A stretch of DNA of 64,000 nt, taken from a virus. Below the pieces are notes generated by a model. It saw only the letters and a list, made by a program, of their open reading frames with translations. It did not search any database and had not been told where the DNA came from. Position 1 is the stretch's first letter. Each line of letters opens with the position of its first letter. Both the position numbers and the translations under genes were made by a program. The DNA is taken from the IMG/VR virus record IMGVR_UViG_3300042502_001233, positions 19,125-83,124 of that record; one strand, written 5' to 3'. Below are positions 5,731 to 47,042 of this stretch, one piece after another.

Positions 5731-6681
5731 TTAGAGCATTTTGTATAACAATTTGTCATCGTAGTTAACTATGAAGTCTTCTACTGAATCAACTTTACCA
5801 TCAACCAACCCAAAATACAATCCAGTGAATTGTTTTAAGTCGTGTTTTCCACAAACTTCAAAGACAGCCGCAGCGTATCTTTTCTTTTCTTCTTTGGTTA
5901 TGTTTCTTGGTTTACGAGCGCTTAACTCACCCCACATTTCATTTAACTTTACAGTCAATTTGTCGTAGTTCTCTTTAAGTCTTAACAATTCGTCTTTTCT
6001 TTCTGGGAAAGTTGAGGCGAATTCTTCTATCTCGTTAGATTTAACGATAGTTATGATATTGTGTTCAGCAGTTTTACCTTTAAGGTGATGTGCGTGTACG
6101 TAAGCTGGGTTTTTTATCTTGATACGATTGAAATTAGCGTCTACAACAACGTAACCTTCTTCTGACCATGGCATACCCTCAAATGTACGTAACAACGCAC
6201 CCACATCTTTAGCGTTCAAGTCAAATCTTTTAACCAATGGTAATCTTAAAGATACGGATACCATTTCTAAGTCTTTCCAAGACAATTCCACTAAAGTCAC
6301 TCGGTTTCTAACAGTCAACAAAGTTGCTGATGATTCTCCGTGTGGTGCTACAACGATATTGTATGGAGTAGTTAACTCAAAAACGTATACGTGGTCTTTA
6401 TCCAACATACATGGGTTTAACGCGTATTGTTTTGTTACAGTATCCCAAAATAACGAGTTGAATGTTGTTCCCATTTTGTTGTTTACTTCACCTTCACCTT
6501 CGGCTGTACCAGTTGTACCAGCAAACCATTTATTAGCGTGCCAATCCCAATATACTTGGATTAATGAATTATGTACTAGAATACCATTAGCGAAAAAATT
6601 ATTAGTTATTTTGGTTTGAATGTCGTATCTTTTAGATTCACAAGTAATTGATTTGATACTTTTTATTTTAACTATTTTCAT
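5731..6681 (-). CDS. RNA ligase 1 (Rnl1 family) C-terminal part preceded by a split-intein C-segment (IntC, 38 aa)
   Basis: The N-terminus ...YDIQTKITNNFFANGILVHN|S is intein block F/G ending HN then Ser+1. The extein SLIQVYWD aligns with T4 Rnl1 SLVSTYLD after KEDG. Motif IV EGYVVVD and motif V RIKIKNP are present. Confidence 0.8.
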   Translation of the reverse strand: MKIVKIKSIKSITCESKRYDIQTKITNNFFANGILVHNSLIQVYWDWHANKWFAGTTGTAEGEGEVNNKMGTTFNSLFWDTVTKQYALNPCMLDKDHVYVFELTTPYNIVVAPHGESSATLLTVRNRVTLVELSWKDLEMVSVSLRLPLVKRFDLNAKDVGALLRTFEGMPWSEEGYVVVDANFNRIKIKNPAYVHAHHLKGKTAEHNIITIVKSNEIEEFASTFPERKDELLRLKENYDKLTVKLNEMWGELSARKPRNITKEEKKRYAAAVFEVCGKHDLKQFTGLYFGLVDGKVDSVEDFIVNYDDKLLYKML

Positions 6682-7595
6682 TTTAATAAATTTATTTGTT
6701 CAACAATAAATAACTCCAACTCAATATCATTAAGCGATGATATATCCATTTCCCATAATGTGATAACTTTGTATTGATTTTTATATGCAATATCTATTTT
6801 TTTTTCATCTTTCTTCCATATAGTTTCAGCTAAGACATGTTTTTTTGGGAATGGTAATATATCACCAATCTTATATTTTCTTGGGTTAGCGTGCCAAAAA
6901 TCACCATTTACTTCAATAAGAATATTAGTATTGTTAATATAGTAATCAAATACTTTACCTTTTAACGTAAATTGTGGTTCAAATTTAAGTCCGATATCAA
7001 TCAAAATCTTACCAACTCTTTTTTCCAAAATAGAAGAACCGCCACTACATAGTCTTTTTATTTGATTTAGTTTTTGTTCTTCGGTATATGAATACCAACC
7101 ACTAATTCTTTTTACACCATATTTTTTTAACATTAATTCATTAACATTATCTTTAAATTCATCAAGTTTAAAGATATTATCAACACCATAATTTTTGATA
7201 AAAGTTTTTTGTTTTTTTTCTTTTATTGATTCGTTGTTTGAGACATTATCAACACCAAAACGTTTAAAACAAGTTGTTTTATATTTATTTCTAACTGATT
7301 TTTGATTACTTATTTCTTTTGATGATTTCAACTTAATATTATTTAATTTTAATAGTGAAGTTAAACTTTTATTAGGTATTTTATATTCTTTAACCAAACT
7401 AAAAACAGAACCGTCATTAATATATTTTTTAATAATTTCACCTATTAACACATCAGTTAAACCAAACCTTGTTTTTAAAACAAACAATTCTAGTTCAGTT
7501 TCATTTTTAAATTCACTATTGTGACTATTTTTAACGTGTAATTTAAACATTTTACTATCAAATTCACACTCACATTTTATACATTTAATCTTCAT
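6678..7595 (-). CDS. freestanding homing endonuclease, Vsr-like/EDxHD-type catalytic domain with N-terminal Zn finger and NUMOD-like repeats
   Basis: C-terminal NILIEVNGDFWHANP...K resembles the Vsr FVDGCFWHGH core. It lies between the two halves of the Rnl1 gene. Confidence 0.75.
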   Translation of the reverse strand: MKIKCIKCECEFDSKMFKLHVKNSHNSEFKNETELELFVLKTRFGLTDVLIGEIIKKYINDGSVFSLVKEYKIPNKSLTSLLKLNNIKLKSSKEISNQKSVRNKYKTTCFKRFGVDNVSNNESIKEKKQKTFIKNYGVDNIFKLDEFKDNVNELMLKKYGVKRISGWYSYTEEQKLNQIKRLCSGGSSILEKRVGKILIDIGLKFEPQFTLKGKVFDYYINNTNILIEVNGDFWHANPRKYKIGDILPFPKKHVLAETIWKKDEKKIDIAYKNQYKVITLWEMDISSLNDIELELFIVEQINLLK

Positions 7596-7605
7596 AACTT
7601 TTTTT

Positions 7606-7619
7606 TATTATAAATATCT
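7606..7619 (-). promoter_or_regulatory. class-2 motif (minus strand GATATTTATAATAA) immediately upstream of the endonuclease ATG
   Basis: Plus-strand ttattataaatatc; the same motif is found before most endonuclease genes. Confidence 0.35.
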
Positions 7620-7652
7620 AGAAATATTAGAAAAGTTAGATTAGTATCAAAT

Positions 7653-8255
7653 TTATTTAGTAATTAATAAAAATTCATCTTCTTCTGTTAATTCGCTGAC
7701 CATTCTATAACAATTTAGTTTAGGTAACCAAACTTTATGATTTCCAGTTAATTTAACGGTAGTCCCATCTTCTAATTCAATTTCAAACCAATCGTTAATA
7801 TTCTTCTTAACTGAATAATCAATAATCTCGTCATACATTGGTTCATTACTTTCTAAATCTAATGATAAAACTTTACCAGAATACTTAGTTTCACATATCT
7901 CACGAATCGTCATTTCACCATCTTCAGTTATAAGAACAGTGTCCTCATGACAGCAACCATCAAGTTTCTCTAACACATTGGCTGTGTTCCAATCTATTTT
8001 AGCAGCGTTTCCTTCTTCAGCGTTGAAGAATTTACGGAACGCCAACGACATAACTTTCCACGTACCTTTTTCAAGAATAAGACCACGACAATCTTGCATC
8101 TCTGGCAACCCCATAAGAGTTGGTGACGATAATTGGTCATATTTCAAAAGAATCTTGTTATCGTATTCTCTTGATTTAAGTTTAAAGTCATTTATAGCTT
8201 TATCTAGTCCATATTTTTTTATATATGTAACGATAGCTAATTCATTATTTTTCAT
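7653..8255 (-). CDS. RNA ligase 1 N-terminal part (motif I KLDG) fused to a split-intein N-segment (IntN, about 99 aa)
   Basis: LPEMQDCRGLILE...FRKFFNAEEGN...LEKLDG aligns to T4 Rnl1 LPDALECRGIMFE...MEKFFNLNENP...LTKEDG. It is followed directly by CCHEDTVLITEDGEMTIREI, which is intein block A. Confidence 0.8.
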   Translation of the reverse strand: MKNNELAIVTYIKKYGLDKAINDFKLKSREYDNKILLKYDQLSSPTLMGLPEMQDCRGLILEKGTWKVMSLAFRKFFNAEEGNAAKIDWNTANVLEKLDGCCHEDTVLITEDGEMTIREICETKYSGKVLSLDLESNEPMYDEIIDYSVKKNINDWFEIELEDGTTVKLTGNHKVWLPKLNCYRMVSELTEEDEFLLITK

Positions 8256-12183: not shown

Positions 12184-12199
12184 GGGGTCTTAGGACCCC
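12184..12199. terminator. bidirectional rho-independent terminator hairpin GGGGTC-TTAG-GACCCC flanked by A and T runs
   Basis: perfect 6-bp GC-rich stem seen in the sequence. Confidence 0.6.
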
Positions 12200-13128
12200 T
12201 TTTTTATTTCAGTTACTATACCTTTAATAGCAAAGTTTTTTATTTTTTGCCATTTGGTGATGTTGTTTGACATCACTGGTTTACCACCATCTGGATTTAT
12301 TGCAATCGTAATGTGTGGTATTGCATTGGCTGATGGATAACCTTCTACTTTGACCGCCATGGCCATATCGCTAAGACCTATGGCTTCAACATACAACGTT
12401 ACCTCTTTACCTAAGTCTTCTTTGTTTGGAACACCTTTACCGAATACAATTGTCATGTGGTGAGCAAATACTTTCCAACCTTCTGGGATATAATCATCAA
12501 GTCTAGATAACAACGCTGCTTTAGAACCATTATCCAATACAACAGCTGAATATAACACATCAGATTCTTTGTACATGTCTTTAGACTCCAAAACACTTTT
12601 CAATGTTAGCAATCCTTGACCTTTGTGAGATTCAATCAATGATTGAATTTTTTCCAATGGTACACCGTGAGTATTTCTCTCAGCAAGTATTTCCGCTGGT
12701 AACCCGTTGGTACCTATATCAACAAATTTTATGTTGTTATCAGACAAACCTAATTCTAACGCTGCTTTCACATACGCTTTGGATTCGTTTTGTTTGATGT
12801 TCGTGTTATCCACAATAACTGGTGATAATCCTTCTTTCAAAGATTTTATCGCATTTTTCAAGTTTGTTGAGTGCGCTCTTGACAATGGTGTGAAATCTTT
12901 CGACTCAAACATTGCTGCAAAGAATTTGTTGTAATCACCTTGTGACTCAATAACATCGTCTGTGGAGTGTATGATACCTTCACCTACTAGTTCTTTAGCT
13001 TTTGTGGATTTACCAGAACCTGGTATACCGCGCATAACTATCAGTTCTTGTGTTGGTCTTGTAACTACAACACCCAACGCATTTTTTTTCATGTCTTCTC
13101 TTAATATTGTTCTTATTTCTTTTTTCAT
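12190..13128 (-). CDS. bifunctional polynucleotide 5'-kinase / 2H-family cyclic phosphodiesterase
   Basis: N-terminal P-loop GIPGSGKST (T4 Pnk kinase-like); C-terminal twin HxT motifs HHMTI and HITI typical of the 2H phosphoesterase superfamily. Confidence 0.7.
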   Translation of the reverse strand: MKKEIRTILREDMKKNALGVVVTRPTQELIVMRGIPGSGKSTKAKELVGEGIIHSTDDVIESQGDYNKFFAAMFESKDFTPLSRAHSTNLKNAIKSLKEGLSPVIVDNTNIKQNESKAYVKAALELGLSDNNIKFVDIGTNGLPAEILAERNTHGVPLEKIQSLIESHKGQGLLTLKSVLESKDMYKESDVLYSAVVLDNGSKAALLSRLDDYIPEGWKVFAHHMTIVFGKGVPNKEDLGKEVTLYVEAIGLSDMAMAVKVEGYPSANAIPHITIAINPDGGKPVMSNNITKWQKIKNFAIKGIVTEIKKGS

Positions 13129-13152: not shown

Positions 13153-13932
13153 TTAACTAGCAACTTTTTTATATAATAATTTTTTAACGTTTGGTGTCAA
13201 AGAGAAATTTGGAATTTCTTTTAAACACCATTTAAGATAATGCGGTGCTGTTTTGGCAATCTCTCCAACTGTTTTACCTTTGTTCTTACCAAAATTAATC
13301 ACATCATCTTCATCCAACGCTTTTGATACTTTGGTTGTGGCTGGTTTCTTTTTATCTTCCATTAACATAAGTTTAGAATCTTTTAAATCAACCATGTGAA
13401 GCATAATCTTAGCCTCATCTTTAGCATCAGCGCCAGCTCTATGTTCTTCAACATATACCTCACCGTCCTTCATAAAGAATTGGTTATAAATCTCTTCCAC
13501 CGATGGTCTTTTGGTTTTACCATTCTTATCTTTGTATTGTGAGTATTGTGTGGCTGTTTGCATAAGACACTTAACGTCTTTCATTTCAAACCCAGCAGCT
13601 TTCAAGAATCTAAGGTCAAATGATTTGTTATATGCGGTCATTTTGTATTTGTCAAACAATTCTTGGAGTTCTTCTCTGTAATCATCCAAAGATTTCGCAT
13701 TTTCAACGTCTTCAACCGTAAGTGTTGTGTTTTGGAATATCCAAGAGTTCTTATGTCTTTTTGAGTTAAACTTATCGTGTTTAATTACGTTATCGAAAAC
13801 TATTTCGATTTTTTTGGTTACGGTATCCACTAAGGCAATACCTATTTCTACGATAGCATCAGACTGCGCGTAAAAACCTGTTGTTTCAATATCTACTACT
13901 AATAATTTCATGTATTTTGTTGTTATAAACAA
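13153..13932 (-). CDS. DEDDh 3'-5' exonuclease (DnaQ/RNase T-like)
   Basis: Exo I VVDIETTG, Exo II AYNKSFDLRFL, Exo III H...D (EEHRAGADA). Confidence 0.75.
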   Translation of the reverse strand: MFITTKYMKLLVVDIETTGFYAQSDAIVEIGIALVDTVTKKIEIVFDNVIKHDKFNSKRHKNSWIFQNTTLTVEDVENAKSLDDYREELQELFDKYKMTAYNKSFDLRFLKAAGFEMKDVKCLMQTATQYSQYKDKNGKTKRPSVEEIYNQFFMKDGEVYVEEHRAGADAKDEAKIMLHMVDLKDSKLMLMEDKKKPATTKVSKALDEDDVINFGKNKGKTVGEIAKTAPHYLKWCLKEIPNFSLTPNVKKLLYKKVAS

Positions 13933-13942
13933 ATATACTAAA

Positions 13943-14875
13943 TTAAGTTTGATTTATCAAGTGAATAATTGAAGGGTTGTAAACTATTATGTGTTTTATA
14001 TTTTCATAGTCTTTATTTACTATGATTCCGTCAATACCTAAAGAAACACAATTTCTAACAAATTCAACTGGGTTATATCTGTAAAAATCAATCCATACTT
14101 GAAGAATGCAGTCTTTTTCGTTATCATTGAAGTTCATACAACCTTCAACAAATTCTTGCATACCTCTTATTGGATTTTCGTCCCAATTTTGTGCACTACC
14201 TTCCCAATCTTCAGCCATCATAGCTAATTTTTTGATATAAGGTCTTAATTTATTTTTGTTTATTGGAACTTGGTCAAATAAAACTCTTGGTGTTAGTTTT
14301 ACACTATAGATATTTTCACCATAACGACCAGCTTCTTCTTTTGATGTGGTGAAGTAAATACCTGGACCTTCTAGGTCATTGGCTTCTTTACCACCAACAA
14401 AATCATCCATAAATTTAGTTATTTTGGTTGGGCTACCGTGAAATACGTAGTATTCACCACCATCGATTGATTCTGGTAATAAATTTTCCCTAAGCAAAGT
14501 CTTAATCAAAAACTTATTCTCGTTTAACGAATTTAACATAAAATTACAGTTTGGAAATAAAATAATTTCATTGGTTTCACCATCTTTCATTGTGATAATC
14601 GCATCATAACCCAAACCCATTAATTTTTTTGTTAATTGTTTACCCTTGGCTTTATATTCTTTAGCCAATTCGTATTTGTAAGAAATTTGGGTGTCATCGT
14701 CAACCTCTATTGTAAGTGGATTTTTTATTACAGCCAAACCAGAAACCCATGGTTCTTTAACTGGTCTATCAGTATCTTTTTCAATCACATATGTACCAGA
14801 TGGTTCAACATCTTGACCGAACATAGAACCGTAGTATTGTGCTGGTTCCATGTTTTTCATTATCCTTAATATCAT
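13943..14875 (-). CDS. possible PARP-like (H-Y-E class) ADP-ribosyltransferase domain protein
   Basis: YVFHGSPTKI and GPGIYFTTSKEEAGRYG resemble PARP1 LLWHGSRTTN and GKGIYFADMVSKSANY; the catalytic Glu position is uncertain. Confidence 0.35.
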   Translation of the reverse strand: MILRIMKNMEPAQYYGSMFGQDVEPSGTYVIEKDTDRPVKEPWVSGLAVIKNPLTIEVDDDTQISYKYELAKEYKAKGKQLTKKLMGLGYDAIITMKDGETNEIILFPNCNFMLNSLNENKFLIKTLLRENLLPESIDGGEYYVFHGSPTKITKFMDDFVGGKEANDLEGPGIYFTTSKEEAGRYGENIYSVKLTPRVLFDQVPINKNKLRPYIKKLAMMAEDWEGSAQNWDENPIRGMQEFVEGCMNFNDNEKDCILQVWIDFYRYNPVEFVRNCVSLGIDGIIVNKDYENIKHIIVYNPSIIHLINQT

Positions 14876-14915
14876 ATTTTCTTTTTATATAAATATCATG
14901 ATTCAAGGGAAAATC

Positions 14916-15003
14916 TGGAGGAGAATATGGGATTCGAACCCATGGGCCGAACTAACGGCCACGGTTTAGCAAACCGCTCCAATAACCACTCTGGCAATTC
15001 TCC
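14916..15003 (-). tRNA. tRNA-Ser(GCU), type II, CCA encoded
   Basis: Hand fold: acceptor GGAGAAT/ATTCTCC, anticodon loop TTGCTAA, long variable arm GGCCGTTAGTTCGGCCC, T-loop TTCGAAT. Confidence 0.7.
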
Positions 15004-15040
15004 AAATTTGTACCCCTACAGGGACTCGAACCCCGATTCT
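15004..15040 (-). pseudogene. tRNA 3'-half fragment (variable region + T-arm + acceptor 3' strand) abutting the HNH gene
   Basis: GGCTAGAATCGGGGTTCGAGTCCCTGTAGGGGTACA with no matching 5' half upstream; the HNH ORF 15045..15647 occupies that position. Confidence 0.4.
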
Positions 15041-15044
15041 AGCC

Positions 15045-15647
15045 TTAATTTTTGTAATTTTTTAAATATCGGTCTTTTCTAGCTGAGTTTTTATTTTTAG
15101 ATTTATATGTATCTAATTGTGAATCACAATTATGACATATTAACCTTAAATTATTTCTCATATTATTAGACGCATTTCCGTTAATATGGTCTAAAATAAA
15201 ATTCATAGGTTTACCATTCCAAACATTTTTAATATTACATATATCACATTCACAATTTTGTTCTATTAATATATGTTTTTTCAATGGTGCTAAATCTTTA
15301 TTAGCGTTACAAAAATCTTCTTGATTACTCAAATAATTTTTATAGTATTCTTCAGTTTTATGTTTTACCCAACATTCTTTATTACAATATAATTGTTTAT
15401 CATAAGAAGTGTTAACTTCTTTACCACAACACAAACAATTTATTTTCTTACCCTTACCAGTGTTAACTGGTTTGAAATTTTCACCAAATTTTGCTCTGAT
15501 TGGTAATTCAATTCCTAATCGTTTACATACTTTTTTTATATATGTATCAGAAACACCGTATTTTTCACCAATTTTTCTATAAGAAATTTTTTGAACAAAA
15601 ATTAAATCTTCTAGGTCTACTTTTTTATATTTTTCATTATAATCCAT
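15045..15647 (-). CDS. HNH homing endonuclease with N-terminal HTH
   Basis: LDHINGN...NLRLICHNCDSQ HNH motif; inside the tRNA cluster. Confidence 0.75.
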   Translation of the reverse strand: MDYNEKYKKVDLEDLIFVQKISYRKIGEKYGVSDTYIKKVCKRLGIELPIRAKFGENFKPVNTGKGKKINCLCCGKEVNTSYDKQLYCNKECWVKHKTEEYYKNYLSNQEDFCNANKDLAPLKKHILIEQNCECDICNIKNVWNGKPMNFILDHINGNASNNMRNNLRLICHNCDSQLDTYKSKNKNSARKDRYLKNYKN

Positions 15648-15725
15648 AATATTTTTTTATTATAAATATAATGAATTCGAACCAAAAGTCAACTATTTTT
15701 AAATTTAATTTTATGTTCAGATTTG

Positions 15726-15798
15726 TGACCTTATCGGGATTCGAACCCAAACGACAAATTTAGAAGATTTGTATGCTAATCCGTTACATCATAAGGCC
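15726..15798 (-). tRNA. tRNA-Arg(UCU)
   Basis: Anticodon stem CAAAT/ATTTG, loop CTTCTAA; T-loop TTCGAAT. Confidence 0.6.
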
Positions 15799-15816
15799 AG
15801 TTATTATTTAATGTTG

Positions 15817-15890
15817 TGGCTCCGACAGGGCTCGAACCTGTGACCCACAGATTAGAAATCTGTTGCTCTGTCCATCTGAGCTACGGAGCC
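15817..15890 (-). tRNA. tRNA-Arg(UCU), second copy with different sequence
   Basis: GGCTCCGTAGCTCAGATGG...; anticodon stem ACAGA/TCTGT, loop TTTCTAA. Confidence 0.6.
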
Positions 15891-15897
15891 AATTTTT

Positions 15898-15974
15898 TGG
15901 TGACCACGGTAGGATTCGAACCTACAACCTCCGCAGTCGTAATGCGGTGCGCTATCCAGTTGCGCCACGTGGCC
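15898..15974 (-). tRNA. tRNA-Arg(ACG), CCA encoded
   Basis: Anticodon stem CCGCA/TGCGG, loop TTACGAC. Confidence 0.7.
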
Positions 15975-15980
15975 AGTATT

Positions 15981-16053
15981 TGGTACCGAGTATGGGAGTC
16001 GAACCCATGTATTCATCTTTATGAGGGATGAACGTTTTCCTATAACCCTCGGC
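15981..16053 (-). tRNA. tRNA with anticodon CAU (Met or Ile-lysidine), atypical D-arm
   Basis: Loop CTCATAA, T-arm ATGGG/TTCGACT/CCCAT, CCA encoded. Confidence 0.5.
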
Positions 16054-16059
16054 ATTTTG

Positions 16060-16133
16060 CGGCCTCGACAGGATTCGAACCTGTAACCCTTGAGTTAACA
16101 ACTCACCGCTCTAACCATTATAGCTACGAGGCC
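16060..16133 (-). tRNA. tRNA-Asn(GUU)
   Basis: Loop TTGTTAA; G27.A43 mismatch. Confidence 0.55.
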
Positions 16134-16140
16134 TTTTTTT

Positions 16141-16216
16141 TGGCGGCCTAGGTAGGATTCGAACCTACACGCCTCACCTTAACAGGGTGCCGCTCTACCG
16201 TTGGAGCTACTAGGCC
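16141..16216 (-). tRNA. tRNA-Asn(GUU), second copy, CCA encoded
   Basis: Loop CTGTTAA identical to the canonical Asn loop. Confidence 0.65.
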
Positions 16217-16322
16217 AATTTTATATTTTTATCAATACACCGAGTACCACAATTACGGTGCGCCTCTGGCCTACTCGCCAGCAATGCTGTTTTTACCCGT
16301 GGTTACACCATTTGATAGGGTG

Positions 16323-16396
16323 TGGTCCCCTCGGGACTCGAACCCGAAACCGTCGCGTTATGAGCGCGCTGCGCTAACCAATTGCGCCAGAGGACC
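16323..16396 (-). tRNA. tRNA-Met/Ile2 (CAU)
   Basis: GGTCCTCTGGCGCAATTGGTTAGCGC...; loop CTCATAA. Confidence 0.6.
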
Positions 16397-16666
16397 TTAT
16401 TTACGTTTTTCAACAAGATAGTTAATGTAATCTTCGTAGCCATCATCATCATCATCATCATCATCATAATCATCATCTTCTGGTTCAAAGTCTTCATCTA
16501 ACATTTTATCCAGAACTTCAAAAGCTATTTTCATTACTTCGTTTTCTTTACCCTTTAATTGTGGGTTAGGAAGCAAAATGAACAATCCAACTATGGCTTC
16601 TACCAATCCTTTTTCATTTTCACTATATTGTCTTTTCATAGTTGTGACGGTGGGGCTCGAACCCAC
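16397..16666 (-). CDS. small acidic protein inside the tRNA cluster (likely start MKRQY at about 16639)
   Basis: C-terminal DDDYDDDDDDDDGYEDY. Confidence 0.35.
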   Translation of the reverse strand: MGSSPTVTTMKRQYSENEKGLVEAIVGLFILLPNPQLKGKENEVMKIAFEVLDKMLDEDFEPEDDDYDDDDDDDDGYEDYINYLVEKRK

Positions 16667-16725
16667 ATTGTGTTATAAACACCCAGCGTATCAGGCTGGT
16701 GACTAAACCATTCATCCACATCACA
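16642..16725 (-). tRNA. tRNA-like gene with anticodon GAU but a 16-nt hairpin variable arm (non-canonical)
   Basis: Same anticodon loop CTGATAC as the canonical Ile tRNA next to it, plus an extra hairpin GTGTT-TAT-AACAC. Confidence 0.4.
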
Positions 16726-16732
16726 GTTTTCG

Positions 16733-16806
16733 TGGGTAACACGGGAGTCGAACCCATAACCTCTCGCGTATCAGGCGAGTGCTCTAACCAGTTGAGCTAG
16801 CTACCC
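16733..16806 (-). tRNA. tRNA-Ile(GAU)
   Basis: GGGTAGCTAGCTCAACTGGTTAGAGC...; stem CTCGC/GCGAG, loop CTGATAC. Confidence 0.7.
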
Positions 16807-16814
16807 ATTATTTG

Positions 16815-16887
16815 CACGGACCAAGAGAATCGAACTCTTTCCATTCGAGGTTTTGGAGACCTGATGCATGCCATTATGCTGGCCCGT
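16815..16887 (-). tRNA. tRNA-Trp(CCA)
   Basis: Loop CTCCAAA; T-arm AAGAG/TTCGATT/CTCTT. Confidence 0.6.
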
Positions 16888-16894
16888 ATTTAAT

Positions 16895-16989
16895 TTATCA
16901 CCAAAGGATTCGAACCTTTACACCCTTCTCGGGTTACCGTTTTCACTACAGCAGTCAGTACCCAGTTTACTCTTTTGACTCACGTGATA
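16895..16989 (-). ncRNA. tRNA-like element (about 95 nt) with T-arm and acceptor-like ends; anticodon arm unresolved
   Basis: T-loop AAAGG/TTCGAAT/CCTTT and a 6-bp acceptor TATCAC/GTGATA; possibly a type II tRNA. Confidence 0.3.
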
Positions 16990-16997
16990 AATTTAGG

Positions 16998-17083
16998 GTG
17001 AAAAGACGGGACTCGAACCCGCAAGGACATTTCTGTCATCTGGCTCACAACCAGACTCGCTACCGTTACGTACTACAATCACC
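16998..17083 (-). pseudogene. tRNA-His-like (GUG) with extra variable hairpin and mismatched acceptor; probable pseudo-tRNA
   Basis: Loop TTGTGAG, hairpin GACA-GAAA-TGTC, three acceptor mismatches. Confidence 0.35.
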
Positions 17084-17092
17084 ATGTATTTC

Positions 17093-17725
17093 TTATACTC
17101 GACCTAATCTCCAATTATCTGGAATTAAATCATCTTTTTTAATCTTTTTATTTTCACTACCATTTGTTACCCATCGACTACCAAATTGTGAATTTGTTTC
17201 ACCAACACCAGTACCTTTTTTTACTTTAGACATTAATTGTTTAGATTCATGACTATGGGTTTCACCTTCCCAATTTTTAATCCAATTTTTATCTCTAGTA
17301 CCAGTTAAATATTCTAGTGTTCTAGCTGTTGATATTTTATTACTTTTCTTTTCTACCCATTCTGGGTCTTGTCTTAAAAGCTTTTGTTTTTCGTTTGATT
17401 TAATCGCATTCAATTTTTGTTGTTCCGAGCTAAACCCACCAGTACCACCTTCTCTAAGATTCATACACATAGGGTTTTCCACCAACTCTTTAGTAACAAT
17501 TTCAATCTCTCTAAGAACCATTTCTTCTCTTGTAGGTAAAAATTCAAGTATTTCTTTTGTATGGTTTTCCACACCATGTTTTCTAATTGAATACCTAAGT
17601 CTTTTACCACTCCCCATATAACCATCTTCCAGGTTATATGCACTATGCATTCCTACATAATATCTTCCCGTTACATTACATGTTGTTTTATATATGTAAT
17701 GTATGTTTCTTTGTTTTCTTGCCAT
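17093..17725 (-). CDS. GIY-YIG homing endonuclease
   Basis: IHYIYKTTCNVTGRYYVGMHS...GYMGSG; paralog of 38029..38688. Confidence 0.8.
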   Translation of the reverse strand: MARKQRNIHYIYKTTCNVTGRYYVGMHSAYNLEDGYMGSGKRLRYSIRKHGVENHTKEILEFLPTREEMVLREIEIVTKELVENPMCMNLREGGTGGFSSEQQKLNAIKSNEKQKLLRQDPEWVEKKSNKISTARTLEYLTGTRDKNWIKNWEGETHSHESKQLMSKVKKGTGVGETNSQFGSRWVTNGSENKKIKKDDLIPDNWRLGRV

Positions 17726-17784
17726 TTCTCTTTCTTTCTAAATAAATATCTTAAGAAAGAGAAAAGTACAAAAAAGTTTAAGAG

Positions 17785-17859
17785 GGTGGTATATCGGGTT
17801 CGAACCGATGACCCTCGACACCACAAGCCGATGCTCTAACCAACTGAGCTAATACCACC
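17785..17859 (-). tRNA. tRNA-His(GUG) with G-1:C73
   Basis: 8-bp acceptor GGTGGTAT/ATACCACC, loop TTGTGGT. Confidence 0.75.
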
Positions 17860-17952
17860 ATGTTTAATTTACATTCACCGCATTTTTGCGGCGATTATCA
17901 CCGTTAACTTTAAAAATTATAAACTATGCGGTGATAATATTGTCTATTCGCC

Positions 17953-18387
17953 TTATTTTTGCGGTGAATATTTTTCTATATAATTTATTAAATTATTCAA
18001 ATAATTAATATCTTCTTTTACATTACCCAACAATTTATTACATTTGTCACATAAAATATCTCTAACAACACCAGTTAAATGACAATGGTCCACATGTGTG
18101 TTTTTATCATTTTTTAGAACATCACTACAGATAGAACATTTATTATCTTGTTTATCTAATTTTAAAAAATATTCTTCTTTTGTAAGACCATAATTTCTTA
18201 AAATTGAATTATATTTTATTTTTTCTTTCTGAATAGGGTTTTGATATCTAATCTTAGTCCTATTATTTTCACACTCTTTACAATAATGATTTAAACCATC
18301 TTTATTATAATTCTTAATACCAAATAAATCAATACTTTTTACTTCTTGACATTTGGAACATCTTTTTACGTTCGTATTTATTTCCAT
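17953..18387 (-). CDS. endonuclease VII-type HNH nuclease (probable homing endonuclease)
   Basis: HVDHCHLTGVVRDILCDKCN matches the Endo VII family motif. Confidence 0.7.
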   Translation of the reverse strand: MEINTNVKRCSKCQEVKSIDLFGIKNYNKDGLNHYCKECENNRTKIRYQNPIQKEKIKYNSILRNYGLTKEEYFLKLDKQDNKCSICSDVLKNDKNTHVDHCHLTGVVRDILCDKCNKLLGNVKEDINYLNNLINYIEKYSPQK

Positions 18388-18456
18388 ACTAATAAATATC
18401 TAACATTTTGTAAAAGTGCGGATAATTTTTAATATTCACCGCATTTGTAAACTTTG

Positions 18457-18544
18457 CGGAGATAGTAGGATTCGAACCCACAAGCCGTTTCCGACCACAG
18501 TTTTCAAGACCGCCAAGCTTAGTCCACACTGCTCTTATTCTTCC
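18457..18544 (-). tRNA. type II tRNA, probably Ser(UGA); acceptor stem has 2 mismatches
   Basis: Loop CTTGAAA, variable arm GTCGGAAACGGC, T-loop TTCGAAT. Confidence 0.4.
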
Positions 18545-18765
18545 AATTCATCGTCCTTTTTAATCTCTACAAAGATTACGGTGAACCCACCTTCTTTATG
18601 AAATCTTAGCTCTCCGTGATATCCACTGGCATCAGCTATCTTTCTGTACTTATCGACTATCAGGTCGAAATCTTTTGTAAGGTTTACAGTTTTCTCTGTT
18701 CCTAATTTTCTCACCAACTCACCCATAGTCTTAAAATAAAAAAACCCGATTAAGTTTTCACTCAT
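18535..18765 (-). CDS. hypothetical protein
   Basis: 76 aa; a hairpin plus T-run overlaps its start codon. Confidence 0.35.
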   Translation of the reverse strand: MSENLIGFFYFKTMGELVRKLGTEKTVNLTKDFDLIVDKYRKIADASGYHGELRFHKEGGFTVIFVEIKKDDELEE

Positions 18766-20483: not shown

Positions 20484-21677
20484 TCAAGATAATCCTAATA
20501 ATTTTTTAAATTTATCAGTTTCCATTTTTTGAATGGCTTTTCCAAGTTCAGGTCCAGGACCTATATTGAATTTTTCCATCGCTTCTGGACCAGTAACTGT
20601 TAGTCTGAACTCTTCAAAAGCATCTAGCAATTGTGATGATATACCTTCGTTGCTACCAAAATTTCTAATTTGGTCGTTGGATACTCCAGAAGTTTGTTGT
20701 ACTTTCTTTAATAAGTAAGCAGTGTCAACATCTAACTTCAATAATGAAATTAAAAACACAATGGCTTTAATCTCATCCGATGAGTATTTTAAATCATTTA
20801 GTTTTTTTCTCAATACATCAACGTTGTTACCTTTTAACAACCTAGCTAACAATACTATGTAATCATCAGCTTTGTAATCAGAGTTTCTTCTAAATACTCT
20901 TGTGTCTACATCCAAATTAGGAAATATCCAATCAAACAATTTGTATTTGTCTAACATCAACAAGTAAGCGTCGGTTGATTTAGCTGATATAAGCCCTTTG
21001 ATAAATTCATCTCTAATACGTTCACCAGAAATACCTTCAAGACTAGCATCTTGTTGTAACGCAGCATCTACGTCAGGGTCCAACCCACTACCAAATCTAC
21101 CAGCCAGTCTTATACCTCTAAGTTTACGTAATTTATCTTCACTAAACCTGTCTTCTGATTTACCAACAGTGCGTATAACAGAATTTTTTAAATCAACGAT
21201 ACCACCTACTAAATCTACTACTTCTTGGGTGTCCATATCATAAAACAAAGCATTTACACTAAAATCTCTTCTTAAAACATCAGATTTTATATCTGAAAAT
21301 TCAACGTAATCTGGTCGTCTACCATCACTACTACCGATATCTTTACGCATAGTAGCTATCTCATATTCACCATCTGTAGTTATAACATTAACCACACCAA
21401 ACGCTTTACCTGTTTCCAATATATTTGTAACAAATTCTTGATTTTTTAATAAATTTATTACGTTATCTGGTGTGGCATTTGTTACTAAATCAAAATCTTT
21501 TGGTGTTACATTAAGTAACATATCACGAACTGACCCACCAATAGGGTATAATTCAAAACCATTTTTTTTAAAAATTGAATGAATTTTATTAACATTTGTC
21601 GGAAATTTAAAATAAATTTTTAATCTCTTCTCTGATGTTAAATTTTTTTTTAAAATTTCCTTTATAATTGTTTTCAT
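20484..21677 (-). CDS. tRNA nucleotidyltransferase (CCA-adding enzyme)
   Basis: Head-domain motif LYPIGGSVRDMLL...DFDL (GGxVRD / DxD). Confidence 0.8.
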   Translation of the reverse strand: MKTIIKEILKKNLTSEKRLKIYFKFPTNVNKIHSIFKKNGFELYPIGGSVRDMLLNVTPKDFDLVTNATPDNVINLLKNQEFVTNILETGKAFGVVNVITTDGEYEIATMRKDIGSSDGRRPDYVEFSDIKSDVLRRDFSVNALFYDMDTQEVVDLVGGIVDLKNSVIRTVGKSEDRFSEDKLRKLRGIRLAGRFGSGLDPDVDAALQQDASLEGISGERIRDEFIKGLISAKSTDAYLLMLDKYKLFDWIFPNLDVDTRVFRRNSDYKADDYIVLLARLLKGNNVDVLRKKLNDLKYSSDEIKAIVFLISLLKLDVDTAYLLKKVQQTSGVSNDQIRNFGSNEGISSQLLDAFEEFRLTVTGPEAMEKFNIGPGPELGKAIQKMETDKFKKLLGLS

Positions 21678-24421: not shown

Positions 24422-24484
24422 TTATAATAAACTTAAGGCGGTGCTCTGATAATCTATTTCATAGTTTCTATTATTTAAAGTTTG

Positions 24485-24559
24485 AGGTCGGAGAGAGATT
24501 TGAACTCCCACCGTAAAGGTTCTTGCGGAACCAGTGCCTTACCATTCGACCATCCGACC
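24485..24559 (-). tRNA. tRNA-Cys(GCA), discriminator U73
   Basis: Acceptor GGTCGGA/TCCGACC, loop CCGCAAG, T-loop TTCAAAT. Confidence 0.6.
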
Positions 24560-25166: not shown

Positions 25167-25226
25167 AATTTCTAATTTTTTGTTTATTATAAATATACCA
25201 CACTTTTAAAAAATGTAAAGTGTTTG

Positions 25227-25299
25227 TAGTTCTAATCGGACTCGAACCGATATCTCTCCGTTTTAGAGGCGGGTGTATTCACGTTAATACTATAGAACC
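25227..25299 (-). tRNA. candidate amber-suppressor tRNA, anticodon CUA
   Basis: The 73-nt hand fold fits canonical numbering. Acceptor is GGTTCTA/TAGAACT, D-stem GTAT/ATAC, anticodon loop CTCTAAA (34-36 = CUA), and T-arm ATCGG/TTCGAGT/CCGAT. The anticodon stem has C.A mismatches at both ends. Confidence 0.45.
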
Positions 25300-36083: not shown

Positions 36084-36767
36084 TTATGAAAGAAGCTCTA
36101 TTTTACCTCTTAATATGTCTTTTAGACTAGCAGTCTTATTAGTGATATGGTCTACAACCATATCATCCTTTACACGATAAGTCCTTCTTTTATCGGCACG
36201 ACCACCTTCACCAATTTGTTCATTACGGTTTTCAATGGTTAATGAATCATGACCTGTTTTATAAAAGTTATTAACCCTTTGAGTTAATTCAGCAATCGCT
36301 GCTTCTTTATTTTGGTGTTGACTTCGACTATCACGTCTAACTTTAATCCCAGTTGCTATATGAGTTACAACAACACATGATTCAGTTTTATTCCTTTTTT
36401 GCCCACCGTTCCCAGTTCCTCTGGTTGTTTCCAAACGATATTCACTAGGATGTAATTCTACTTCCTTATAATCGTTTTCTTCCATAAGTGCTACGGTGAT
36501 TGAACTTGTATGAACCCTACCTTTTCTTTCGGTTGGTGGTACTCTTTGCCACCTATGTGAACCTACATGGTTTAAGAACACATTTTTAACATTATATCCA
36601 GATATTCAGATAGTTATCATACCATCTTTCTCATCAATAACTTTAGCTTCAAATGAATAATTTTTGCAAGCTTTTAAAAAAATATCTCGCATATCTTTAA
36701 TTAATAATTTTGAATCATCACCGCCTTCTGACGCTCTTAATTCTAATAAAATTTTATTTGTTTTCAT
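36084..36767 (-). CDS. truncated class-I release factor (RF1-like PxT motif PPT, GGQ, no domain 1) with one in-frame TGA
   Basis: MKTNKILLELRASEGGDDSKLLIKDMRDIF...DGMITI-TGA-ISGYNVKNVFLNHVGSHRWQRVPPTERKGRVHTSS...RGTGNGGQKRNKTES...SQHQNKEAA...RTYRVKDDMVVDHITNKTASL. It is collinear with RF1 domains 2-4. Confidence 0.6.
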
Positions 36768-37545: not shown

Positions 37546-37934
37546 AATATTCTTTTATAATAAATATCACAAATAATTAAAAAAACCACAAATGGCAAAG
37601 AATTCCATTCGTTCTTAAAGATTTCTTTTGCGTTTTTACCCGTTAGTCAGATGCTAACAAATCCTAACCTATCTTCGGTTATTATTCAGTCGATGTTATT
37701 GTTCTTCGCTGTTTTAATGTAAATGTCGCGCATTTCACAAACCAACAGCTTCGCATCGGTTCCACCTTCTGCGTCTCGGATTTCTAAATTAATTTTTCCC
37801 ATTGGTTTTGTTTTTTGTTGTTTGTTATTAGTTTTAATAAAAAACCCCATATTGCTATGGGGTTTAGTATTTTACAGAATAGTTTTTGTTTTTTTTTCCT
37901 TAAAAATTTCAATTGCTGAATCTATTCTTCTAGT

Positions 37935-38020
37935 TGCGGAAGTAGGACTCGAACCTACAACACAGTGTTACTGCTCCTCTAGGTTATGAGCCTAGCATGT
38001 TTCCATTTCCACCATTCCGC
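37935..38020 (-). tRNA. tRNA-like gene, anticodon CAU, with a 20-nt hairpin variable arm (non-canonical)
   Basis: Anticodon stem CTAGG/CCTAG, loop CTCATAA, extra hairpin CAGT-AAC-ACTG. Confidence 0.4.
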
Positions 38021-38028
38021 GATGTATT

Positions 38029-38688
38029 TTATTTTCTACCCTTAACCCAACCTTCGTTCAGATAAGTTTCAAGGTTTTCTTTTTTTATCTTTTTGTTAGC
38101 ACCGTCTCTGGTTATCCAACACGTACCGTATTGACTATTTGTTTCACCAATACCAGTACCTTTTCTTTTTTCAGAGATTAAACGTTTAGATTCTTCAGCA
38201 TGATTTTTACCAGTCCAATCTAGATTTTTTAATTTATTCTGTCTGTATTCTTCATTTTCCCAAGCTATTTTATTAACATGAGAATTGAATCTACTTAACC
38301 AGTTTTCATCACCACCGAACTTTTCTTTTAAAACTTCGTCAGTTTTTTTTCTACCAGCTTTAACACATTTAAACATATGTTCTTCATTGATAAAACCACC
38401 ACCTTCACCACCAAGAGCCAAATTCATACATTTGGAATCTGAAATTAATTCTTTATTAACAATTTCTTTTTCTCTTTTAGCTAATTCTTCTCTATTTTCT
38501 AAAAATTCTAGAATCTCTTTTGTGTGATTTTCTTTACCGTATTTTCTAATAGAACGTCTTAATGTTTTACCACTACCTATATAACCATCTTCTAAGTTAT
38601 ACGTGCTATGCATTCCGATGTACCATCGTCCTGTTATATTACACGTTGTTTTATAAATGTAGTGTATGTTTTTTTCTTTTCTTGCCAT
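38029..38688 (-). CDS. GIY-YIG homing endonuclease (paralog of 17093..17725)
   Basis: IHYIYKTTCNITGRWYIGMHS...GYIGSG. Confidence 0.8.
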   Translation of the reverse strand: MARKEKNIHYIYKTTCNITGRWYIGMHSTYNLEDGYIGSGKTLRRSIRKYGKENHTKEILEFLENREELAKREKEIVNKELISDSKCMNLALGGEGGGFINEEHMFKCVKAGRKKTDEVLKEKFGGDENWLSRFNSHVNKIAWENEEYRQNKLKNLDWTGKNHAEESKRLISEKRKGTGIGETNSQYGTCWITRDGANKKIKKENLETYLNEGWVKGRK

Positions 38689-38746
38689 TTCAATTTCTTT
38701 AATAATAAATATCTCAGAAAACTGAAAAGTACAAAAAAGTCTCCAG

Positions 38747-38819
38747 TTGCGGGGGCACGACTCGAACGTGCGACCTCAAGGTTATGAGCCTTGCGAGCTA
38801 CCTACTGCTCTACCCCGCG
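38747..38819 (-). tRNA. initiator tRNA-fMet(CAU)
   Basis: CGCGGGGTAGAGCAGTAGGTAGCTCG...CTCATAA...; the C1.A72 mismatch is the bacterial initiator hallmark. Confidence 0.75.
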
Positions 38820-40201: not shown

Positions 40202-40513
40202 TTATTTTTCTTTTTCTTGAAACGAAGATGGTAATATGTACTTGTTAAGTTTTAAATACTTGGTAAGTATAAAGAATATCGTACCACCAGGCAACAATGC
40301 AATACCAACCAACCCCGTAGTCTTCAACACATCTTTCAGTTGCTCACCAACCTTGTTCTTTTCCTCTTGAGTCAATTTTTTACCTTCTTTGACCGAGTCA
40401 ACAATCAACATGAAAGCCTCTTTGGTTTCGAGGCTTTCTTGTTCAGTGTTTTTTATAAAGTCTTTGGCGTTAACCTTAAGTTCTTTATAATATTTTTGAA
40501 TGGTTGAAAACAT
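40202..40513 (-). CDS. small membrane-anchored protein
   Basis: C-terminal TM helix GLVGIALLPGGTIFFIL. Confidence 0.4.
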   Translation of the reverse strand: MFSTIQKYYKELKVNAKDFIKNTEQESLETKEAFMLIVDSVKEGKKLTQEEKNKVGEQLKDVLKTTGLVGIALLPGGTIFFILTKYLKLNKYILPSSFQEKEK

Positions 40514-41232
40514 TATTTCTTTCTGTTTATGATTATATCATCAACAATACCGTAAGCTTTAGCTTCTTCTGCATTTAACCATAAATCTCTGTCAGCATCT
40601 ATTTTAACTTGTGCTGGGTCTTTGTCAGTATATTGACCTAACAAACCAAACAAAAGTTCGTTGTATTTCCTAGCTTCTGCCAATGAGATTTCAATGTCTT
40701 GAATAGTACCTTGTGCACCACTTGATACTTGGTGTAACATTACTCGACTGAAATTCAATGTAAATCTCTTGCCTTTGGTTCCAGCACCCAAAAGGATACT
40801 ACCCATACTAGCAGCCATACCAGTGTTGATTGTGATGATATCGGACTTAACGTAGTTCATAATGTCTACGATTGACAAACCTGATTTAACGGAACCACCT
40901 GGACTGTCTACGTGCAAGGTGATGTCTTTCAATTCTAAATTGTCCAAGAACAATAACTGTGCTTGTACTACAGTGCTCATTCTATCGTTAACTGGACCAG
41001 CCAACCAAATGATTCTATCCATCATCATTCTGGAAAAGATATCCATTTGAGTTACCCTCAATTCTCTTTCTTCAAGGATATATGGTGTCAAAGATGCTGA
41101 CGGACCAGTTGTAATCAAAGGAGCTTGCGCACCATAGATTTTTTCTTGAAGTTGTTCCCAATTGTGGAAATCTATCCCAGATATCCCCATATGCTTAATA
41201 GCATAGTCTTTAAATTCTTGCGTGTAATTCAT
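40513..41232 (-). CDS. clpP: ATP-dependent Clp protease proteolytic subunit
   Basis: Ser-His-Asp region GMAASMGS...MLHQ; ClpP-length 239 aa. Confidence 0.9.
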   Translation of the reverse strand: MNYTQEFKDYAIKHMGISGIDFHNWEQLQEKIYGAQAPLITTGPSASLTPYILEERELRVTQMDIFSRMMMDRIIWLAGPVNDRMSTVVQAQLLFLDNLELKDITLHVDSPGGSVKSGLSIVDIMNYVKSDIITINTGMAASMGSILLGAGTKGKRFTLNFSRVMLHQVSSGAQGTIQDIEISLAEARKYNELLFGLLGQYTDKDPAQVKIDADRDLWLNAEEAKAYGIVDDIIINRKK

Positions 41233-47011: not shown

Positions 47012-47042
47012 AATAATAAAATTTTTGATTGTTAATTTTTGA

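Follow-up and report, generated by a model that had tools for sequence, protein, structure and literature searches.

Reviews of tRNA structure restrict the long variable (V) arm to the tRNAs for Ser, Leu, Sec and bacterial Tyr (e.g., PMC7609411), i.e., to class II. Exceptions have been described in other settings. The nev-tRNAs of nematodes (Hamashima et al. 2012, PMC3333845; PMC4300185) carry a V arm on anticodons other than those of Ser, Leu and Tyr, for example Ile(UAU) and Gly(CCC), while allo-tRNAs and the (8/4) tRNA-Ser/His (Mukai et al. 2017, PMC5389517) are irregular molecules with long V arms and diverse anticodons, some of them encoded in phage tRNA clusters. Here we analyse three tRNA genes of a viral tRNA array, Ile*, His* and Met*, which combine a V arm of class II type with the anticodons and identity marks of class I tRNAs. 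The stretch analysed, called the window throughout, comprises 64,000 nucleotides (nt) of the IMG/VR record IMGVR_UViG_3300042502_001233, and all coordinates are window positions. An asterisk denotes the long-variable-arm form of an isotype, and L-numbers denote related IMG/VR loci.

With the bacterial class II tRNAs the three genes share a hairpin in the V region and, in the case of Ile* and Met*, a D stem of 3 bp; 3' of the V stem, their unpaired nucleotides are similar to those of Tyr tRNAs. They differ from them in their class I anticodons and identity marks (Ile, His, initiator Met) and in the shortness of the hairpin (3-5 bp), and their relatives add long-arm class I forms for Cys, Pro, Asn, Val, Thr, Lys, Trp and Asp. 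The nev-tRNAs have bodies of Leu or Ser type and are leucylated in vitro, whereas here body and discriminator match the anticodon and the host belongs to another domain. Allo-tRNAs show an 8/4 or 9/3 split between acceptor and T stem together with Ser identity (G73/U73); the 7/5 split of our tRNAs rules out membership in this group. The phage (8/4) tRNA-His, moreover, lacks G-1, while His* of the window has G-1:C73. The closest annotated gene is crAss001_t23 of Bacteroides phage crAss001 (MH675552.1, 5721-5807), labelled tRNA-Met, which was found by blastn with Met* (80% identity) and shares with it the V arm (AGAAGCAGUAAUACUGUGUU), C1xA72 and A73. Unlike Met* of the window, it stands at the end of its array, where tRNA-Gly and not a GIY-YIG gene precedes it. 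We found no published discussion of its extra arm. In the open-access literature searched, long-arm class I tRNAs of phages are nowhere described, and a 2020 review of non-canonical tRNAs has no similar case. The odd tRNAs look like a seemingly undescribed architectural variant rather than gene debris. An earlier note on this DNA, made from the sequence alone, had considered an unrecognised tRNA-like class, which is apt for the new feature, a class-II-type arm on class I identities, but not beyond it, as the molecules are otherwise ordinary tRNAs.

That note had drawn the three genes by eye, as an Ile(GAU) gene with a hairpin arm, a His(GUG) gene with an extra hairpin and a CAU gene with an extra arm. 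ARAGORN calls them with 85, 89 and 89 nt, respectively, within 1-3 nt of the ends given there. Neither ARAGORN nor Infernal with the Rfam tRNA model RF00005 (gathering score 29 bits) yields a normal class I fold for them, and both place the surplus 13-20 nt in the variable region. In the ARAGORN cloverleaves the surplus forms a hairpin of 4-5 bp in all three cases; the covariance model, which covers Ile* over its full length and His* at model positions 6-65, sets an insertion of 13-14 nt between anticodon and T arms. The V regions of Ile*, His* and Met* measure 16, 15 and 20 nt against the 4-5 nt usual in class I. At the 5' side of the variable loop sits the extra hairpin of 9-14 nt: GUGUU-UAU-AACAC, followed by AAU, in Ile* (a 13-nt insertion on the Rfam alignment), GACA-GAAA-UGUC in His*, and GCAGU-AAC-ACUGU between AGGA and GUU in Met*. 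All else bears the hallmarks of a tRNA, namely a 7-bp acceptor, a 5-bp T stem, a 7-nt anticodon loop with U33 and a GTTCGA-type T loop within an ordinary T arm, GGUUCGAGYCC. The CCA tail is not encoded by most tRNA genes of the window, all three odd ones included.

As their sequences show, each odd gene keeps marks at its acceptor end that match its anticodon: GAU with A73 in Ile*, GUG with G-1:C73 in His*, and CAU with C1xA72 and A73 in Met*. The G-1 noticed previously on the canonical tRNA-His is present on both His genes of the window; likewise, the C1xA72 mismatch that the note gave for a clear initiator is seen in the gene at 38746-38819 and in Met*. With GAU, GUG and CAU, none of the three has the anticodon and discriminator of a Ser, Leu or Tyr tRNA.

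The extra hairpins are conserved and covary in related phages, which for Met* include crAss001. For Ile*, an exact 20-mer of the anticodon arm led to four IMG/VR loci, each with a tRNA-Ile(GAU) of 85-87 nt. An unbiased search with a D-arm 20-mer, which places no constraint on the V arm or the anticodon arm, returned 17 loci with ten distinct long forms and three short homologs. The hairpins of the long forms are unrelated in sequence and always paired (GUGUU-UAU-AACAC, GUGC-UUUU-GCAC, AUUC-UUAG-GAAU, GUC-GCAA-GAC, GUUC-UUCG-GAAC), with GCAA and UUCG tetraloops among them, and the three homologs of 74 nt are set apart by an 11-nt indel exactly at the hairpin. In the family alignment 99.3% of the cells are paired, and both sides changed in 16 of 24 pairs, including three of the four in the V stem. 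Not one of 500 shuffles reached the covariation score or the share of paired cells, nor did slid controls come close. The 7/5 split is reflected in covariation at all 7 + 5 acceptor and T pairs. Ile* is kept in relatives while the adjoining position of the canonical Ile is occupied by unrelated canonical Ile sequences. Other searches added little: blastn with Ile* and His* gave no match, a metagenome scan with the Ile* 20-mer returned three true matches, all identical to known variants, and five chance matches, and the neighbouring ART-PolyVal protein, used as a locus anchor, recovered one locus.

For the Met* family, two pattern scans of IMG/VR gave 45 and 56 loci, and the crAss001_t23 gene also occurs in 27 related Bacteroides phages; in the crAss001 array it is the sole initiator-type tRNA. 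Ten pairs of the Met* cloverleaf changed on both sides, covariation score and share of paired cells lie above all 500 shuffles, and the 7/5 split is borne out by covariation at 6 + 5 pairs. The V stem itself covaries (GCAGU/ACUGU, GCGGU/ACCGU, ACGGU/ACCGU), and the V-arm sequence is better conserved than the Met* stems. Homologs exist that share the D arm and have a variable loop of 3-4 nt. Scanning genomes of 185,579 bacterial and archaeal species with the exact V-arm pattern yielded one match, on a 2.6-kb contig of a metagenome-assembled genome; thus, the family is viral rather than borrowed from hosts.

Homologs of His* were identified at L001, L005, L006, L158, L159, L163 and L169, and the V stem of the family covaries, the hairpin being kept with two compensatory pairs. 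Only the L005 homolog lacks G-1, which is present in the genes of the window, L001 and L006 and in five more homologs. G-1 stands opposite C73 in the window, L001, L006, L158/L163 and both copies of L169, while L159 combines it with A73. The mismatches at 5:68 and 6:67 are common to the distant homologs in L001, L006, L159 and L169 and are therefore old and tolerated. In view of its bulged acceptor and low Rfam score, the window copy may be impaired, and it may be decaying now that there is a canonical His upstream. Taken together, the three odd genes are real tRNA genes of a phage-specific architectural type in which compensatory changes maintain the hairpin, although the state of the window His* is less certain.

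The arm is not confined to these isotypes. The two GIY-YIG proteins of the window fetched 79 IMG/VR loci with 663 tRNA calls, in which V-region length is bimodal; beyond Ser, Leu and Tyr, the long class comprises Met, Ile, His, Asn, Pro, Cys, Val, Trp, Thr and Asp anticodons. Judged by these gene calls, some of which have doubtful folds in the rarer isotypes, a class-II-type arm on class I identities recurs over at least ten isotypes in phage arrays. Among 976 unique tRNAs of the window and 156 loci, the discriminators of long-arm forms track those of short-arm forms that have the same anticodon and come from the same loci: U in 7/7 Cys, G in 7/7 Asn, C in 6/8 His, A in 10/11 Ile, A in 6/6 Pro (with C1:G72 in 5/6) and A in 5/5 Val. 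U73 and C73 clash with Ser (G73) or Leu/Tyr (A73) identity. At the V stem, unpaired 3' nucleotides number mostly one in the Ser and two in the Leu tRNAs of these loci, compared to three or four in the odd tRNAs. When the bodies were compared in a crude test that masked the anticodon and left out the V region, Ile* came out nearest to Ile (33 vs 21) and Met* nearest to initiator Met (31 vs 23), whereas the window His* was ambiguous; six of eight His* forms were nearest to His. In all, the test gave 46 of 76 odd tRNAs the isotype of their anticodon, compared to 126 of 150 canonical controls. From these features (for tRNA identity sets see the current review, PMC9976931) we conclude that the odd tRNAs are isoacceptors for the amino acid of their anticodon with an added arm and not Ser or Leu bodies with a mutated anticodon. 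A Ser-like origin of the three window genes, or their charging by seryl-tRNA synthetase (SerRS), was rejected on discriminator, 7/5 split, V-arm geometry and body similarity. The reverse oddity was also observed in relatives (L010, L016, L054, L061, L065, L159), where 22 unique tRNA-Leu (mostly UAA/UAG), five Ser and one Tyr have a variable loop of 4-5 nt; L159 has a Tyr of 74 nt alongside a His of 89 nt.

We consider it rather probable, on what the sequences of the array and its relatives suggest, that the odd genes encode cognately charged, translation-competent tRNAs, and that they are residents of the array which endonuclease cassettes have invaded. Several observations weigh against this. 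Met* has U11:A24 and not the A11:U24 of bacterial initiators, and its anticodon stem has two of the three initiator G:C pairs (30:40, 31:39), as does its canonical neighbour, while the long-V forms of L067 and L068 carry all three (29-31:39-41); some crAss variants replace the C1xA72 mismatch by a U1:A72 pair. The window His* has the mismatched acceptor that had been noticed by eye, with U5.U68, U6.U67 and one extra U on the 3' strand, a weak D stem, a score of 24.5 bits below the Rfam threshold and an anticodon-masked body that is not clearly His-like. A73 on Ile*, Met* and Val* would also suit leucyl-tRNA synthetase (LeuRS), and Asn* bodies in relatives resemble Ser. The Ile* family and the Met* family each contain short homologs next to long ones, which neutral gain and loss would predict equally well. 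Several family searches were seeded with tRNA segments, so that conservation of the seeded segment is uninformative, and all relatives except the crAss-type phages are metagenomic contigs. The hairpin, finally, is not tied to any nuclease, and a protective effect is conjecture.

Some of these points would fit mischarging, in which the long arm recruits LeuRS, SerRS or tyrosyl-tRNA synthetase and Ile, His and Met codons are partly misread, or the charged tRNA goes unused. A long arm on an anticodon other than Ser, Leu or Tyr is the situation of nev- and allo-tRNAs (PMC3333845, PMC5389517), A73 is compatible with LeuRS, and the Asn* and Trp* of relatives have Ser-like D arms and G73; for some of these, as far as their sequences tell, cognate identity is less clear. 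The anticodon's own synthetase is nevertheless marked by U73 in all Cys*, by C73 and G-1 in His*, by C1:G72 in Pro* and by C1xA72 in Met*. Further, the split is 7/5 and not 8/4 or 9/3, the V-arm geometry is unlike that of the Ser tRNAs of the same loci, and the Ile* and Met* bodies, nearest to Ile and initiator Met, recur in short-arm homologs. We regard mischarging as very improbable.

The notion of residents and newcomers in the favoured reading stems from the endonuclease genes, with which the tRNA genes are interleaved as described before: an HNH gene, an Endonuclease VII-type gene and two Seg-like GIY-YIG genes. The GIY-YIG proteins are 32-42% identical to T-even Seg proteins (tblastn matches annotated Seg-like, SegE and SegD). 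Like SegB of T4 and T6 (PMC2330249; PMC13096335), they are free-standing enzymes encoded among phage tRNA genes, a setting that explains duplicated isoacceptors and truncated copies. They differ from SegB, apart from the low identity, in that each is joined to a cargo tRNA on its upstream side and to a conserved spacer. Their 79 IMG/VR homologs lie nearly all in tRNA-tRNA spacers; at dozens of loci the gene starts 42-63 nt past one tRNA, the next tRNA follows 10-15 nt past the stop codon, and the two flanking tRNAs are often of one isotype. The mobile unit would consist of a tRNA, a conserved spacer of about 55 nt and a Seg-like GIY-YIG gene, and would land 10-14 nt upstream of a resident tRNA. 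One such unit, the 75-nt His with its endonuclease, precedes His* in the window and L006, a 73-nt His in L008, Asn* in L007 and Ser in L010, while L001, with Ser, His* and Trp but neither endonuclease nor canonical His, represents the empty site. From this synteny we infer that canonical His and initiator are cassette cargo, i.e., newcomers, and that the long-arm tRNAs are the conserved residents of the array. The newcomer-cassette picture fits the work on T6 SegB, an enzyme that cleaves at a T-loop motif within tRNA genes and causes these genes to be amplified (PMC13096335).

A related exchange is seen at the position of the window Asn 16141-16216, a canonical gene of 76 nt. In L002 the syntenic position (1915-2001) is held by an 87-nt long-arm Asn*, and identity between the two is confined to the 17-nt T arm, which suggests, from these two sequences, a cassette-like replacement with its breakpoint in the T arm.

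Arm and endonuclease are not obligatorily linked. Long-arm tRNAs occur in arrays without homologs of the four window endonucleases (L158, L163, L168, and also L001), L158 containing Ile*, His* and Met* together, and a short-arm Ile adjoins a GIY-YIG gene in L170. The arm is therefore not a product of the window endonucleases nor, on present evidence, a shield against them. The latter idea, DNA-level immunity, holds that the insertion alters the target of a homing endonuclease in the tRNA gene and that the RNA hairpin merely keeps the gene usable. It draws on the T-loop cleavage by SegB (PMC13096335), on the position of His*, Met* and one Val* directly downstream of Seg-like genes, and on the deviant T loops of other tRNAs in that position. 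This association is, however, inflated, the loci having been fetched with the window's own endonucleases; crAss001 Met* does not adjoin a GIY-YIG gene, and the T arms of the three odd tRNAs are ordinary. Along with the exceptions just named, this leaves DNA-level immunity a very small probability. As to the deviant T loops, several tRNAs right after Seg-like genes show them, for example UUUCAAAAU instead of GUUCGAAUC (L008 4654-4726, L059 1473-1545, L038, L052), which could be an escape from a T-loop-directed endonuclease.

The other option of the earlier note was that the odd genes are pseudo-tRNAs or decoys created by endonuclease-associated duplication. True debris does lie close by. The 3' half of a tRNA gene, recorded there beside the HNH gene, is of tRNA-Arg(UCU) origin and comprises the T arm and the 3' acceptor strand; L004 and L002 have intact Arg(UCU) genes whose 3' ends match it with 92-94% identity. 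The Ser(UGA)-like type II tRNA is of Ser(UGA) origin but not an intact gene: its acceptor, GGAAGAA/UAUCUCC, has two mismatches, its 5' end overlaps the stop codon of ORF (open reading frame) 18535-18765, and intact homologs are found in L002, L006 and L008. Their positions suggest that both remnants are collateral damage of the HNH and EndoVII-type insertions. A decaying duplicate would also account for the bulged and mismatched acceptor and low score of the window His*, which became redundant with the arrival of the canonical His. For Ile* and Met*, 99-100% paired with abundant compensatory change, the notion fails; odd genes are sole isoacceptors in some arrays and present in others without endonucleases, the His* mismatches recur in four distant loci, and synteny points the opposite way, with the canonical copies arriving. 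We hold decay to be quite unlikely for the three genes as a group.

The decoy part of the claim would have tRNA-shaped RNAs absorb a host tRNA nuclease or a tRNA-binding protein of phage or host, without ever entering translation. The anticodon loops of the odd tRNAs do copy those of their canonical neighbours, the genome invests against tRNA damage, and the V-arm sequence of Met* is as unusually conserved as a protein-binding site would be. A decoy has no use for full aminoacylation identity sets, though, nor for being the sole isoacceptor of an otherwise complete array. The odd form is the only tRNA for its amino acid in the arrays of L159, L005 and L001, and for the initiator type in crAss001; the L159 array, with 24 genes, covers all 20 amino acids and has His solely as His*. 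A contrast is offered by the X element between His* and Trp, which has a long acceptor-like stem, a small hairpin and a canonical T arm and covaries among the window, L006 and L008. Its loop in anticodon position drifts (AGUGAAA, AGAGAAA, CAGGUAAA), so it is probably non-decoding, whereas the loops of the odd tRNAs do not drift. Decoys appear unlikely, if somewhat less so than pseudo-tRNAs. A Y-RNA-like reading of tRNA-like elements was rejected, as Rfam YrlA matches were sub-threshold only and overlapped ordinary tRNAs.

If the odd tRNAs are functional residents, as we favour, they would be co-transcribed with the array, trimmed and provided with CCA by the phage nucleotidyltransferase. The cognate host synthetases for Ile, His and Met would charge them, and the ribosome, which already takes the long variable arms of Ser, Leu and Tyr tRNAs, would use them. 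The weakest step concerns the purpose of the arm. T5 tRNAs counter PARIS or Retron-Eco7, and T4 deploys against anticodon nucleases an RNA repair kit of the kind found here. Our guess, a tentative one, is that tRNA-directed nucleases, or other tRNA-targeting defences that sense the core or the variable region, act poorly on a phage copy with the hairpin. It is prompted by the two RNA ligases of the window, one of them apparently intein-split, its polynucleotide kinase/cyclic phosphodiesterase (PNK/CPDase), its CCA-adding enzyme and its tmRNA. Phage tRNAs are known to escape anticodon nucleases via changes of the anticodon loop (van den Berg et al. 2023, PMC10264068); ours are likewise phage isoacceptors that differ structurally from host tRNAs, but by an added arm and not by point changes in anticodon loop or stem.

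Neutral tolerance is nearly as likely a reason for the arm as nuclease evasion, and stays a tentative option in its own right. Under relaxed constraint, with the host supplying the essential set, a harmless palindromic insertion need only stay paired and the hairpin would be functionless. Ribosome and EF-Tu already accept class II tRNAs; long and short homologs alternate in two families; the hairpin is free in sequence and length (3-5 bp, any loop), and some long V regions lack a clear hairpin (L140). The clade keeps other eccentric residents, such as Trp, the CAU tRNA with a one-nucleotide 8-9 linker and the His* mismatches, as well as reverse cases such as tRNA-Leu with a short V region. What neutral drift accounts for less readily is the recurrence of the insertion in at least ten isotypes, its retention from crAss001 to the window clade and the conservation of the Met* V arm above that of the stems. 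Ile* is more stable than the adjoining canonical Ile, which is replaced outright in relatives, GCAA and UUCG tetraloops suggest selection for a firm hairpin, and the Met* form, the sole pattern scanned, hardly occurs in the genomes of the 185,579 bacterial and archaeal species. More speculative than either is a general version, in which large-array phages including the crAss-type keep parallel, cognately charged, class-II-shaped tRNAs whose arm is adaptive through resistance to defence nucleases or through selective handling by phage repair and maturation enzymes.

If the odd tRNAs are charged and used, then cognate synthetases, formylase, initiation factors and the P site all tolerate the extra arm, phages have some reason to retain it, and nature has already tried the insertion site that tRNA engineers use for tags. 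Should the arm be adaptive, it would constitute a general form of phage counter-defence that is new, and insertions into the tRNA core that preserve identity would have a precedent in nature. With crAss001 on Bacteroides intestinalis a cultivable model exists in which the question is directly testable. It matters for the annotation of phage tRNA sets that a copy of canonical appearance can be the selfish newcomer, with the odd one as the resident.

Table 1. Coordinates of tRNA genes, tRNA-like elements, endonucleases and tRNA-processing genes in the window.
Feature	Position	Strand	Evidence
Ile*: tRNA-Ile(GAU), 85 nt, 7/5 cloverleaf, 3-bp D stem, A73	16641-16725	minus	ARAGORN; Rfam 50.2 bits
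His*: tRNA-His(GUG), 89 nt, G-1 + C73	16996-17084	minus	ARAGORN; Rfam 24.5 bits, below gathering score
Met*: initiator-type tRNA(CAU), 89 nt, C1xA72, A73, 3-bp D stem	37933-38021	minus	ARAGORN; Rfam 53.2 bits
Canonical tRNA-Ile(GAU), 75 nt, 6 nt upstream of Ile*	16732-16806	minus	ARAGORN; Rfam 67 bits
Canonical tRNA-His(GUG), 75 nt, probable cargo of GIY-YIG cassette	17784-17858	minus	Rfam 63 bits
Canonical initiator tRNA (C1xA72, A11:U24), probable cargo of second cassette	38746-38819	minus	ARAGORN, Rfam
tRNA-Ser GCU	14916-15003	minus	ARAGORN, Rfam
tRNA-Arg UCU (two genes)	15725-15798, 15816-15890	minus	ARAGORN, Rfam
tRNA-Arg ACG	15898-15974	minus	ARAGORN, Rfam
tRNA-Asn GUU (two genes)	16059-16133, 16141-16216	minus	ARAGORN, Rfam
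tRNA(CAU), elongator or Ile2 type (C4:G69, C5:G68)	16322-16396	minus	ARAGORN, Rfam
tRNA-Trp(CCA), 74 nt, divergent core	16814-16887	minus	ARAGORN only, no Rfam match
Non-canonical tRNA(CAU)	15978-16055	minus	missed by ARAGORN and Rfam
X element, tRNA-shaped RNA of 108 nt between His* and Trp	16888-16995	minus	fold z-score -3.3
3' half (T arm + acceptor 3' strand) of tRNA-Arg(UCU), directly after HNH stop codon	15004-15041	minus	sequence
Decayed tRNA-Ser(UGA) copy	18457-18543	minus	no ARAGORN call; Rfam 20 bits; fold z-score -0.1
Seg-like GIY-YIG homing endonuclease, between canonical His and His*	17093-17725	minus	phrog_314, E 7e-36
Second Seg-like GIY-YIG, 54% identical to 17093-17725	38029-38688	minus	phrog search
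Cassette spacer ACTTTTTTGTACTTTTC...GATATTTATT, cargo tRNA to endonuclease start codon	17726-17783	minus	motif recurs at 38689-38745
HNH endonuclease gene, between Arg(UCU) and Ser(GCU)	15045-15647	minus	Pfam HNH_3; phrog_10822, E 1e-17
Endonuclease VII-type gene, between Ser(UGA)-like remnant and canonical His	17953-18387	minus	PF02945, E 6e-22; phrog_2633; also in L002
PNK + CPDase-type tRNA-repair enzyme	12190-13128	minus	Pfam AAA_33, tRNA_lig_CPD; phrog_505
CCA-adding tRNA nucleotidyltransferase	20484-21677	minus	Pfam PolyA_pol, E 7e-35; NCBIfam CCA tRNA nucleotidyltransferase

ARAGORN finds 16 tRNAs in the window, every one on the minus strand. Twelve of them fall in 14916-17858 (Ser GCU, two Arg UCU, Arg ACG, two Asn GUU, Met CAU, two Ile GAU, Trp CCA and two His GUG), and four lie apart: Cys at 24484-24559, a CUA suppressor at 25226-25299 and two Met CAU at 37933-38021 and 38746-38819. 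The duplication of isoacceptors that had been described by eye is found for Arg(UCU), Asn, Ile and His, and the 27:43 mismatch said to be common to several tRNAs occurs in 6 of the 16, with no odd tRNA among the six. Cys and two of the CAU genes lie outside 14900-18560, the range given for the cluster. Of the four CAU tRNAs claimed, three were called, and the fourth (15978-16055), though missed by both programs, is conserved and covarying. A single nucleotide separates its acceptor from a D stem of 3 bp, and its anticodon stem has 6 bp; its five homologs are 99% paired, ten pairs changed on both sides, and covariation extends to all four stems. Megablast of the array against cultured phages gave two short tRNA matches only and no region-level DNA relative.

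A kit for tRNA repair and maturation surrounds the array, composed of an Rnl2-type RNA ligase (1321-2397), the PNK/CPDase (12190-13128), an RNase T-like exonuclease (13153-13932), an ART-PolyVal ADP-ribosyltransferase (13943-14875) and the CCA-adding enzyme (20484-21677). The second ligase, of T4 Rnl1 type (5731-8255, minus strand), is apparently interrupted by an intein, its N-terminal part with the intein N half mapping to 7653-8255 and the intein C half to 5731-6681; a homing-endonuclease ORF (6678-7595) lies between the intein halves, and another intein signal was detected at 60452-62758.

Directly after Ile* follows a small, very acidic ORF (16397-16639, minus; ...EPEDDDYDDDDDDDDGYEDY...), which is 93% conserved in L002 and matches no family. 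Its true start is probably the ATG at 16639, as the listed GTG at 16666 falls inside the tRNA. The tRNA at 25226-25299 (minus, anticodon CUA) is of amber-suppressor type and is labelled 'Pyl' by ARAGORN. TAG recoding in the window was considered and rejected: the stops of long ORFs are TAA in 39, TGA in three and TAG in two cases, and readthrough of TAG merges no ORFs. An ORF of 165 aa (36084-36581, minus) matches only the C-terminal half of release factor 1 (RF1; prfA model positions 183-340 of 361). It represents an RF1 gene that has been either truncated or split, and the genome that carries it also has the amber suppressor tRNA. A protein of 491 aa (45575-47050, minus) has DUF2828 and DUF7788 domains, and a PDB sequence search with it found no relative of solved structure. 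A phage tmRNA (39726-40103, minus; RF00023, 63 bits) adjoins ClpP and DnaJ homologs (40513-41232 and 42157-43176), and together the three form a ribosome-rescue and proteolysis module in this phage genome.

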